Shown here: positions 46,302 to 48,174 of the stretch, one piece after another | How the letters are laid out: every line of letters starts with the position of its first letter | Numbering within the stretch: the first letter of the stretch is position 1 | Source of the DNA: Escherichia phage SkaterBoy_Bas90 | Reading direction: 5' to 3' (one strand) | Sequence record: PQ850626.1 | Length of the DNA: 64,000 nucleotides | The notes under the pieces: generated by a model | What the model saw: only the letters and a program-made list of their open reading frames with translations | Told to the model about the DNA's origin: nothing | Database searches by the model: none | Translations under genes and position numbers: made by a program

Positions 46302-47615
46302 TTAGTTATTTGTTTCCATGTCAAAAGAGATTCCACGACCCGCTTCATCGGCAAACCGAACTGTACGGGTTTGAGGTTCTAATACTTCAGGGTTGTTAGC
46401 AATAAAGCGATCAGCGAGACTATCTCCCAAATCTTGTTCCATACCTTCATCAGTCCAGATAACACGAGAAGGGGCGTTGATATCACCAACAGCGAAACCC
46501 TGACCAGAGAACTGACGTGCGCTAACAGTTAAGCCGTTTGGTCGACCACGAGAGGGTCTAGCCATCCATCGCTCCATAGAATCACTTGTAATACCAAGAG
46601 CTTCTTCAAAAGATGTTCTACGAGTAGGGCTTTCTCTTCGTGACTCTTGTGCTCGACGCATTGCAGGGGCTACAAACACCCCTTCAATTGCATTGTGTCG
46701 GTTAGGTTCCTCTTCTCGACCAAGCAGATCACCACCCGTGTTAGTCGTTAAATTTGTCAACCCCTCAGACCAATACGCATGAATCTGACCAGAACCGTGA
46801 AGACTAGACATAATCTGAATCTCTTCATAAGGGATTCCAAAGAATCGACTCATGTCTCGGTTAACACAATATAGAGCACTTGTTGTATCTTCAATAAGAG
46901 AAACCTGACCTAATCCATTGACTAGATGACTAACTGGCTGAGGTGTGGGAAGATATCGAGTTTGGGCCATGTATTGATGCGCAACTGCTGGAGAGGAAAA
47001 TCTCAACACTTGTGAGTTAGGCCACTTCTTGTGAACATACATGATTTCACGACTAGAGACAACCACTGGACAAGGGGAAGTCATAGCCAAATATCCGTGA
47101 GAAGTCATGAATAAGTTGTCAAGAGTCATCGCACCACGGCACATCATAGGAAAATTATCCAATACCTCTTCAATAGAAGTAGGATAATTAAACATGAATT
47201 GGATACGAACCCCATTCCACTGAAACTCAATAATATCAGTGAATGTTAATTGAGAACCCCCAGCATAGGATTCGTTTGTAGCTTCAGCAAGAAGTGATGC
47301 ATATTCAATATCTTGTGACTCTAGCCATTCCTTCACATTACTTTCAATCTCCCGTCCAAGCTCTTGCCAACGATCAGTTGGGATGAAAGTGTTTTGAGTT
47401 CTTGGTGTTTGTCCTCTGACAATAAAGATATCAATGTCATGTGGAGCTATGTTATTAAGGACAGCATCACGAACAGCCCCACCAGTAATGATGGGACAGA
47501 TACCATCTGGAATCAAGTTGTTGTTAATCAACTGTTCAATGAAGTGACGACCAACAGTGATATCAGGTTGTTGAGCAACCTTATCTTCAATTTGGTTAAT
47601 CGGGATAACAATCAT
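46302..47615 (-). CDS. Pol-beta-superfamily nucleotidyltransferase with CCA-adding/poly(A)-polymerase-like head domain
   Basis: 'ITGGAVRDAVLNN...HDIDIFIV' (GGAVRD + DxD); start set to ATG 47615 coupled to exonuclease stop (track start 47672). Confidence 0.5.
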   Translation of the reverse strand: MIVIPINQIEDKVAQQPDITVGRHFIEQLINNNLIPDGICPIITGGAVRDAVLNNIAPHDIDIFIVRGQTPRTQNTFIPTDRWQELGREIESNVKEWLESQDIEYASLLAEATNESYAGGSQLTFTDIIEFQWNGVRIQFMFNYPTSIEEVLDNFPMMCRGAMTLDNLFMTSHGYLAMTSPCPVVVSSREIMYVHKKWPNSQVLRFSSPAVAHQYMAQTRYLPTPQPVSHLVNGLGQVSLIEDTTSALYCVNRDMSRFFGIPYEEIQIMSSLHGSGQIHAYWSEGLTNLTTNTGGDLLGREEEPNRHNAIEGVFVAPAMRRAQESRRESPTRRTSFEEALGITSDSMERWMARPSRGRPNGLTVSARQFSGQGFAVGDINAPSRVIWTDEGMEQDLGDSLADRFIANNPEVLEPQTRTVRFADEAGRGISFDMETNN

Positions 47616-47616
47616 T

Positions 47617-48174
47617 TTACATTTTCCAATATAATGAAGGTGGGTCGTAAGGGTCAAATCCCGTGAGTTCACACAAGAAAAGATAAACCTTAACAGTTAA
47701 GTTAACGTCCTGTTCACAATAAGTAAACATATCTTCAGTGAAAGCATCCCATGCTTCCTCTTGCTCACCGTAGTCACCTTTAAGTTCCTCTAAGAACTCA
47801 CCCCATTGCTTCAAACCATGACCTCTTGGGCCACGTCTAGGGTCGCCTTTCGGATACTCAGGACTGTCACCAATACGGTCAGGTTTAAGATATCGACTAA
47901 GACATAAAGTGTCAAAGACGTTAAAATTATATTTAATCAAAGAGGGATACATCTTTTTCAGAGCAGGTAAGTCGAAGTCAATAATATTATGACCCACTAG
48001 TACATCTGCTTCTGTAAGTTTACGAATCCCATCTTCAATTTGGTGAGGCCGATAGCCCCACCTTTCACCAGTTTCAACATCAAAGATATAAATACACCAT
48101 ACTTTAGTTATGTCATCGTACAGTGCATTACTCTCGATATCGAATGCAAACACTTTCTTCTTTTTCTTTACCAC
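47617..48174 (-). CDS. 3'-5' exonuclease (DEDDy, Pol A proofreading-type), encoded separately
   Basis: Exo I 'FAFDIESN', Exo II '[12 protein letters not shown]', Exo III 'YCEQDV'. Confidence 0.7.

Follow-up and report, generated by a model that had tools for sequence, protein, structure and literature searches.

The locus at 46302-47615 (minus strand) of Escherichia phage SkaterBoy_Bas90 raises the question of what a nucleotidyltransferase (NTase) does in the middle of a phage replication block. It lies within the 64,000-nucleotide stretch of DNA analysed here (PQ850626.1), referred to below as the window. A first-pass annotation of the window described the product as resembling a CCA-adding enzyme or poly(A) polymerase (PAP), which could repair tRNA 3' ends, counter tRNA-targeting nucleases, serve the phage's own tRNA-Arg or tail RNAs. 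The analysis supports one part of this description. Judged by sequence profiles and structure models, the protein shares its ancestry and its head fold with the class II enzymes to which CCA-adding enzymes and PAP belong. It is not a canonical CCA-adding enzyme, as the features for ribonucleotide, C/A and tRNA specificity are missing. The explanation favoured here, tentatively and with confidence a little short of even, is that of an active, head-only, replisome-associated NTase that would add nucleotides, with a specificity that is not canonical, to the 3' end of a nucleic acid.

The open reading frame (ORF) is a real gene and not a chance one. In the ORF list it is read from a GTG and spans 46302-47672 on the minus strand (456 amino acids, a.a.). 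The frame proposed by the first-pass annotation was borne out, as was the ATG it named: the GTG at 47672 was dropped for the ATG at 47615-47613, because the N-terminus that results, M-I-x-I-P, is conserved across the family (M-I-x-[IV]- in all 25 diverse members of the family alignment, with M1 invariant). The coding sequence (CDS) accordingly runs from 46302 to 47615 and encodes 437 a.a. plus a stop; the ORF list, the sequence and PHROG 12715 identify it as the orthologue of phiEco32 gp73. The coupling of this ATG to the stop of the preceding exonuclease-subunit gene, which had also been proposed, is exact in the sequence. In the TAAAATG junction (47613-47619, minus strand) the TAA stop (47619-47617) is followed by one base (A, 47616) and then by the NTase ATG, an arrangement indicative of translational coupling, and in relatives (EP335, EK010, UKE3 and metagenomic relatives) the NTase CDS abuts or overlaps the exonuclease stop.

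The window is ~99.9% identical in DNA sequence to Escherichia phages ES17 and myPSH1131, and its phage belongs to Kuravirus in the Gordonclarkvirinae, the phiEco32-like podophage group. The RefSeq product name of the ES17/myPSH1131 orthologue is 'nucleotidyltransferase'. There are 69 phage records with a full-length orthologue and 97 with the N-terminal domain. PHROG 12715, the Gordonclarkvirinae NTase, is matched over the full length of the protein (residues 1-437, E=1e-244) and by all 25 diverse family members too. Relative to phiEco32, the ratio of nonsynonymous to synonymous substitution rates (dN/dS) is 0.11 for the N-terminal part (residues 1-215) and 0.54 for the tail. The tail-coding part (46302-46740) has a dS of 0.145 and the N-terminal part a dS of 0.51, with similar dN; the low dS of the tail region could reflect recent recombination or mosaicism, or else constraint at the nucleotide level. 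An ORF of 100 a.a. also lies antisense over the NTase N-terminal part (47364-47666, plus strand); no sign of a gene was found in it, and it is probably spurious. The protein product of the SU10 orthologue has been detected by mass spectrometry, in a 2014 paper that already gave the gene its CCA-like annotation (PMC4281155). Since the gene was catalogued and annotated, the first-pass reading repeats an existing annotation, and what is described here is not new as a gene; as a kind, it represents a separate variant, as yet uncharacterised, within a known class of enzymes.

The protein has two major parts: (i) a folded, conserved core (residues 1 to ~290; 46746-47615, minus strand, as are all features of the gene given below), made up of a class II-like head domain and family-specific helices; and (ii) a disordered, fast-evolving C-terminal tail (residues 294-437; 46305-46736). 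The family alignment was made from three genera at first and then from 25 representatives sharing 23-34% identity. Its invariant residues are G45, G46, R49, D50, D60, D62, F64, Y117, I128, Q139, P156, Y193 and K197. Motif A (residues 43-66; 47418-47489), IITGGAVRDAVLNNIAPHDIDIFI, holds GGAVRD (residues 45-50) and DID (60-62, part of DIDIF at 60-64), and with them G45, G46, R49, D50 and the metal-binding D60 and D62; it is the only stretch that aligns confidently to class II enzymes. Residue 126 is D or E in every family member and is a candidate third carboxylate. In the window phage, D126 and the invariant Q139 of the 'IQxM' motif lie on strands at residues 124-146 (47178-47246), and IQxM aligns to 'LQMI' of Gad2, a phage anti-defence protein discussed below. 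The segment FPMMCRGA (residues 155-162; 47130-47153; P156 invariant) is a degenerate counterpart of the class II motif B, RRDFTINA, from which the RR pair is absent; it aligns to FDFTVCMGA of Gad2 and to FDLGIAR of a Ralstonia phage NTase. The helix motif YVHKKWP (residues 193-199; 47019-47039), in which Y193 and K197 are invariant, aligns to AEKYPD of a T7-like phage NTase and has no confident alignment to EDxxR, the class II motif D. It may bind the nucleotide or its triphosphate in place of motif D, and the pattern R-[DE]-x-x-Y-x-x-K-K might be the topological equivalent of that motif; the equivalences proposed for D126, Y193 and K197 are likewise putative.

A second conserved element (residues 247-286; 46758-46877) consists of two helices with F-x-[IL]-P and, after them, the aromatic motif [WYF]-[ST]-x-G-[LR], here YWSEGL, and is kept in all family members, even in the shortest ones (274-285 a.a.). 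From a shallow alignment, AlphaFold2 gave a good model of residues 1 to ~215 alone. With a diverse alignment, residues 1 to ~290 were confident (predicted local distance difference test, pLDDT, mostly 90-98, and ~94 at residues 250-270), and residues ~216-290 are thus both conserved and confidently modelled once the alignment is diverse. The tail stays below a pLDDT of 50 in both models. On the strength of the two models, the long C-terminal region, which the first-pass annotation had taken to be unrelated and partly disordered, divides into a folded stretch of ~75 residues and a tail of ~145 that is disordered; disorder holds for residues 294-437, and does not extend to the conserved stretch before them. 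The tail is net acidic (18 K+R and 24 D+E in residues 291-437) and cannot be aligned between genera. In 17 of 26 family representatives, an aromatic residue occurs within the last five positions, typically as ...R-[FW]-x-[FW], where ~32% would be expected from tail composition (binomial P ~4e-4, a statistic that ignores relatedness). This pattern suggests a putative terminal docking motif carried on a variable disordered linker.

The relation to class II enzymes was assessed against a reference alignment combining E. coli CCA and PcnB with six bona fide tRNA NTases of phages, the invariant columns of which are the textbook motifs A to E. In hhalign, the family matches this reference with 81-86% probability (E 5e-6 to 1e-5), and the confident span pairs residues 43-107/139 with CCA residues 5-60/85, that is, motif A and the sheet. 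An hhalign run forced through motifs B-E (-mact 0, -glob) had zero confidence beyond residue ~139 and was not used for residue equivalences. Simpler searches gave less. The Pfam model PolyA_pol (PF01743) scores 18.8 bits (E=0.0022), under its cutoff of 23, with orthologues at 17.8-21.9 bits, and an NCBIfam search of the NTase returned no match. Searches of PDB sequences with the single sequence or a small profile found only the 21 residues of motif A (E ~0.5), and with the profile of 25 sequences the best match was a CCA enzyme (E=0.002), again essentially through motif A. The GGAVRD...DID signature is therefore present as first described, but with PolyA_pol at 18.8 bits it is not diagnostic by sequence alone. 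As for structure, the closest solved folds are the head domains of class II enzymes (CCA enzymes and PAP), which form a clear top match and agree with the head assignment made at first pass. An MNT-type antitoxin (NTP_transf_2, PF01909-type, ~100-150 a.a., with a HEPN partner), which had been named as the competing Pol-beta-fold assignment, was rejected, as the protein lacks the marks of that group and does not match it better. A CD-NTase/cGAS-like identity was rejected likewise, there being no better profile or fold match to those proteins than to other NTases.

Compared motif by motif, the class II features comprise motif A and little beyond it. GGxVRD followed by DxD is there, with G45, G46, R49, D50, D60 and D62 invariant in the family. 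The RRD of motif B (DxxRRDxTxNA) recognises the ribose 2'-OH, and D87, R90, R91, D92, T94 and N96 are the motif B invariants of the reference set; the equivalent segment here is LDNFPMMCRGA, and a conserved R-R-D is found nowhere in the family. EDxxR of motif D serves class II enzymes as an amino-acid template for CTP and ATP. For motifs C, D and E, the reference invariants D115, D131, R134, R137, R140, R176 and E180 have no conserved counterpart. Class II enzymes have about 200-250 further residues that form a helical neck, body and tail for binding tRNA or RNA; none of these domains is found in the NTase, which has the disordered residues 294-437 instead. As RRD and EDxxR are both missing, sugar and base specificity must differ from those of CCA enzymes. 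The first-pass description as CCA/poly(A)-polymerase-like thus stands for the head, on the hhalign match and the DxD with acidic residue 126, and falls for a canonical CCA enzyme.

An exhaustive profile search delimits a narrow family, with ~30 representatives among 1.84 billion sequences at E<=1e-10, and outside it are remote NTases of ~200-240 a.a. Another relative is Gad2, a Gabija anti-defence protein of Bacillus phage SPbetaL7 that is a predicted NTase of 400 a.a. (Yirmiya et al., bioRxiv 10.1101/2023.05.01.538930). With the Gad2 sequence taken from OQ921347.1 (L020:1564-2766) and a Gad2 family alignment of 26 sequences, hhalign relates the kuravirus family to the Gad2 family with 77% probability (E=2e-5) over 111 columns (residues 21-175), which span motif A, the IQxM/LQMI strand and the degenerate motif B (F[PD]xxxC-x-GA). 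A direct comparison of Gad2 with class II enzymes is not significant (4% probability). Given the similar E-values (2e-5 for Gad2, 5e-6 for class II), the kuravirus family occupies a position between the two groups, at roughly the same distance from class II enzymes as from Gad2. The profile search suggested at first pass thus yielded the class II relation, in hhalign, along with a PolyA_pol score below cutoff and a second group that is about as close. Most kuravirus orthologues carry a precomputed Pfam label for Gad2 (PF26128), marked 'weak' (E<=1e-3) where its strength is shown (P0001), and the match of the remote relative P0048 is unmarked, which means E<=1e-5; a local Pfam scan gave no PF26128, not even for P0048 with its precomputed match. 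A tblastn search of P0048 against phages, aimed at Gad2, returned one irrelevant match, and no literature was found for 'PF26128'. Gad2 itself weakly matches the PADLOC candidate defence model PDC-S19 (E=3e-4, residues 25-131), so NTase domains of the Gad2 type may exist in defence systems too.

PHROG 1614, a group of small phage NTases, is matched by residues 35-155 (E=1.7e-7), by 25 of the 25 family members (best E=3.5e-11) and also by Gad2 and the bridging proteins. The closest viral structure models (BFVD), at TM-scores of 0.55-0.64 normalised to the target, are those of head-only proteins (167-203 a.a.) of podophages, T7-like ones among them. With gp11 of Ralstonia phage DU_RP_I, the hhalign match (E=2e-5, 145 columns) extends over all of the catalytic core.

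The foremost clue from context is that these NTases turn up repeatedly among replisome genes of the T7 type. The upstream neighbour of the NTase gene encodes a DNA polymerase 3'-5' exonuclease subunit (47617-48174, minus strand; Pfam DNA_pol_A_exo1, E=2e-8; PHROG 38876 and 403), and beyond it lies a T7 gp4-type primase/helicase gene (48168-49958, minus strand; PHROG 239, E=1e-175; Pfam DnaB_C). The downstream neighbour is a dCTP deaminase gene (45759-46292, minus strand; Pfam DCD, E=3.6e-34; PHROG 1663), and further downstream are genes for a Dps-like protein, a thioredoxin and ThyX. These neighbours confirm the replication-block setting recognised at first pass. The gene order primase/helicase, exonuclease subunit, NTase and dCTP deaminase is found in Kuravirus, Nieuwekanaalvirus and Suseptimavirus, and the same order occurs in metagenomic relatives at ~30% NTase identity. 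In the Autographiviridae Ralstonia phage DU_RP_I, the NTase gene (L021:4935-5576) lies between those of the primase and DNA polymerase I, and in Pseudomonas putida phage Emajogi, NTase gp22 adjoins primase/helicase gp23 (bioRxiv 10.64898/2026.09.15.751885). With homologues of the kuravirus core near replisome genes in T7-like phages, the association of NTase and replisome recurs across phage families.

From these features, the protein is a Mg2+-dependent NTase of the Pol-beta superfamily, and probably an active one. Its catalytic core is a highly divergent, stripped-down class II head domain, and the family forms the Gordonclarkvirinae branch of phage-specific 'head-only' NTases (PHROG 1614 and PHROG 12715, modelled in part by Pfam as Gad2). 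The proposed reaction is the untemplated transfer of a nucleotide from an NTP or dNTP to a nucleic-acid 3'-OH, and the disordered tail probably docks the enzyme on a partner protein, perhaps a replisome component. In this account the fold, the conservation of the catalytic residues, the lack of motifs B-E and of body and tail domains, the synteny and the family links are shown directly. We infer four further steps, namely that the enzyme is catalytically active, that it acts on the 3' end of a nucleic acid, that the tail docks it, and that it serves protection or counter-defence. Several points weigh against it. The acceptor could be a protein or a small molecule instead. The gene neighbourhood may reflect only the shared expression of middle genes, and accessory genes are known to occupy the primase-polymerase interval of T7-like phages. 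The docking idea is founded on a composition statistic that ignores phylogeny, and the kuravirus tail itself, which ends in ...GISFDMETNN, has its aromatic residue 7 positions from the end, so that the pattern is weaker there. Links beyond the family are weak too, with probabilities of 66-86% and Pfam matches below or near threshold.

As to purpose, the candidates are counter-defence of the Gad2 type, tailing of RNA or tRNA, and modification of DNA or nucleotides, all of them on the unlikely side and the last one markedly so. Rebuilding of CCA on tRNA 3' ends, or A/C tailing of RNA, as a counter to tRNA-targeting nucleases or in service of tRNA-Arg, is unlikely to be what this NTase does. The nearest solved folds (class II CCA enzymes and PAP) all act on RNA 3' ends, and GGAVRD...DxD is of class II type, including a VRD part that is absent from Gad2; the SU10 paper arrived at the same annotation (PMC4281155), and the phage does carry a tRNA gene. 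That gene, tRNA-Arg(TCT) at 63871-63946 (minus strand), is the sole tRNA gene of the window. It ends in ...GGGCGCA-CCA, however, so its CCA is genomically encoded and its maturation needs no CCA addition. The absence of motifs B (RRD), C, D (EDxxR) and E and of a tRNA-binding body or tail domain, with a disordered and net acidic C-terminus in their place, speaks against this role as well, as do the PolyA_pol score below cutoff and the lack of an NCBIfam match. Genuine phage CCA enzymes, by comparison, are recognisable. They share 27-56% identity with E. coli CCA and are found in 463 phage records, mostly of large, tRNA-rich phages, with no Kuravirus among the organisms listed in that search, and the tRNA-NTase group PHROG 2244 was matched by 0 of 25 family members at E<=1e-3. 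The tRNA-repair interpretation is therefore only partly supported. Possible, though doubtful, is a functional equivalent of Gad2, that is, a counter-defence NTase that would use an enzymatic mechanism to neutralise Gabija or some related system of the OLD-family or DNA-end-sensing kind. It would account for the PF26128 labels, P0048 included, for the 111 aligned columns with both IQxM and the F-x-x-x-C motif, and for PHROG 1614 matching both groups. Deletion of Gad2 makes SPbetaL7 sensitive to Gabija, and Gabija inhibition has been shown only for this knock-out and for a Brevibacillus homologue (bioRxiv 10.1101/2023.05.01.538930); the Gordonclarkvirinae, for their part, have been reported to be highly resistant to tested defence systems (PMC11990801). 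Yet the likeness covers only ~110 residues, at 77% probability, and leaves out both the VRD motif and the Gad2 C-terminal domain (~130-400). The NTase is, moreover, a strictly syntenic core gene coupled to that of the exonuclease subunit, whereas Gad2 belongs to a variable anti-defence locus. No paper was found linking Gordonclarkvirinae and Gabija, and how Gad2 itself works was still not established as of a February 2026 review.

Humolli et al. (2025) proposed that the dCTP deaminase and this NTase might underlie DNA modification (PMC11990801). Such a role, in which the two enzymes would act on DNA or on the nucleotide pool and yield a non-canonical base or a covalent modification against restriction, is improbable on the evidence assembled here. 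The two genes do adjoin in all loci compared, loss of RRD could allow dNTP substrates, and the Gordonclarkvirinae have been reported to show striking resistance to restriction-modification (RM), with no known modification pathway or restriction inhibitor (PMC11990801). The window also keeps 35 EcoRV, 13 EcoRI, 8 EcoKI and 110 EcoP1I sites; these are not avoided, so site avoidance alone would not explain the reported RM resistance. Other motifs are avoided: six-base palindromes occur at 0.60 of the expectation from composition, GATC 131 times (expected, 239) and CCWGG 6 times (expected, 75), and the sites of BamHI, PstI, KpnI, SalI and SacI number 0-2 each against ~11 expected. Avoidance of this kind suggests that the DNA has been exposed to restriction, which counts against a protective modification. 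ThyX is also encoded, which allows the dCTP deaminase a simpler role in dTTP supply for a genome of 42.6% GC and makes dU-containing DNA as in PBS1 unlikely. The NTases of T7-like phages, further, have no adjacent dCTP deaminase, and no class II-type NTase is known to us from any pathway of DNA modification. Least probable is a target other than nucleic acid (nucleotidylylation of a protein, or synthesis of a small nucleotide signal or decoy) or a non-catalytic scaffold working through the disordered tail. The long tail with its short conserved motifs would fit, and so would the toxicity of over-expressed SPbetaL7 Gad2 and Emajogi gp22; the latter shows its toxicity when strongly induced, and Gad2 family is the annotation given to some of its homologues (bioRxiv 10.64898/2026.09.15.751885). 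The class II fold is the clear top match, however, a PADLOC search of the NTase gave no match, and the catalytic residues are invariant and dN/dS is 0.11, both of which speak against a role that is purely structural. The favoured reading, a replisome-associated NTase acting on nucleic-acid 3' ends, also has a bolder form, which is a long shot. Tethered to the replisome, the enzyme would modify the 3' ends of phage DNA or primers, or nascent DNA, and would be the basis of the broad resistance of the Gordonclarkvirinae to restriction and to further defences that target DNA; it would then reveal how the wider group of Gad2-like head-only NTases works, with DNA ends hidden from end sensors such as Gabija.

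The surroundings of the gene offered some further observations. The C-terminus of the primase/helicase (48168-49958) has an acidic stretch and a terminal W, and resembles the polymerase-docking tails of T7 gp4 and gp2.5. Genes for HNH homing endonucleases interrupt the otherwise syntenic replication locus at differing points in several Gordonclarkvirinae (L018:4862-5371; L002:8093-8575; L003:474-1010). At 45143-45758 (minus strand) there are three tandem small ORFs of 69, 69 and 65 a.a., paralogue-like, with the C-termini ...KVIYY, ...GKVHY and ...SKVYY; their phiEco32 counterparts are gp69-71, which bear the annotation of hypothetical proteins. Immediately upstream of the replication block is a gamma-glutamyl cyclotransferase-like gene (50178-50597, minus strand), and the same region of phiEco32 (L001:1-6438) contains a cluster of amidoligase, glutamine amidotransferase, ATP-grasp and COOH-NH2 ligase genes. 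Cyclotransferase and ligase cluster could together form a pathway of peptide or metabolite modification.

The Gordonclarkvirinae are common, broad-host-range phages of E. coli that are used in therapy work (e.g., ES17), and they reportedly withstand almost every restriction or defence system tried on them, by a mechanism that is not known (PMC11990801). The NTase is among the few conserved enzymes of their replication block without an assigned role, and it links two uncharacterised groups, the primase/polymerase-adjacent small NTases of T7-like phages and Gad2. Identification of its substrate could explain a counter-defence strategy and would correct the labels 'CCA-adding enzyme' and 'tRNA nucleotidyltransferase' that such genes carry. 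Its importance would rise sharply if the NTase proved to underlie defence resistance or to reveal how Gad2 acts.

Among known systems, the class II enzymes (E. coli CCA and PcnB; B. stearothermophilus CCA, 1miv; E. coli PAP, 3aql) have motif A in common with the kuravirus NTase, at similar spacing. Only ~150-167 of the 290 core residues superpose on them, with 13-18% identity, and where they have helical domains the kuravirus protein has its disordered tail of ~145 residues. The stand-alone CCA head protein of S. pneumoniae (NP_344798.1; PDB 2la3) is bacterial, has 191 a.a. and scores below the full-length class II enzymes. Gad2 resembles the kuravirus NTase as a phage NTase with a class II-like head, GGA...DxDI[FY] and a degenerate motif B without the RR pair. 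It differs in reading GGAITS, with VRD lost, where the kuravirus family keeps GGAVRD, and in its conserved, folded C-terminal domain (~130-400), which has no counterpart here: the alignment stops at Gad2 residue 128, and the Gad2 invariants after the head include H130, N131, Q133, R134, R151, K154, Y155, Y294 and K295. Its gene is located in the variable anti-defence locus of a temperate Bacillus phage, while that of the kuravirus NTase is part of a replication module. The small head-only NTases (DU_RP_I gp11, Emajogi gp22 and those of Providencia phage PS3 and Aeromonas phage phiAS7) have only 167-213 a.a., with no N-terminal helices, no insertion at 80-100, no 247-286 element and no long disordered tail; the genes for them are accessory, not universal in their phage groups, and the proteins are uncharacterised as well. 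With one of them, DU_RP_I gp11, the kuravirus NTase nevertheless has in common GGAxRD, DxDxF, xQxx, FDxxxxR and K[YW]P.

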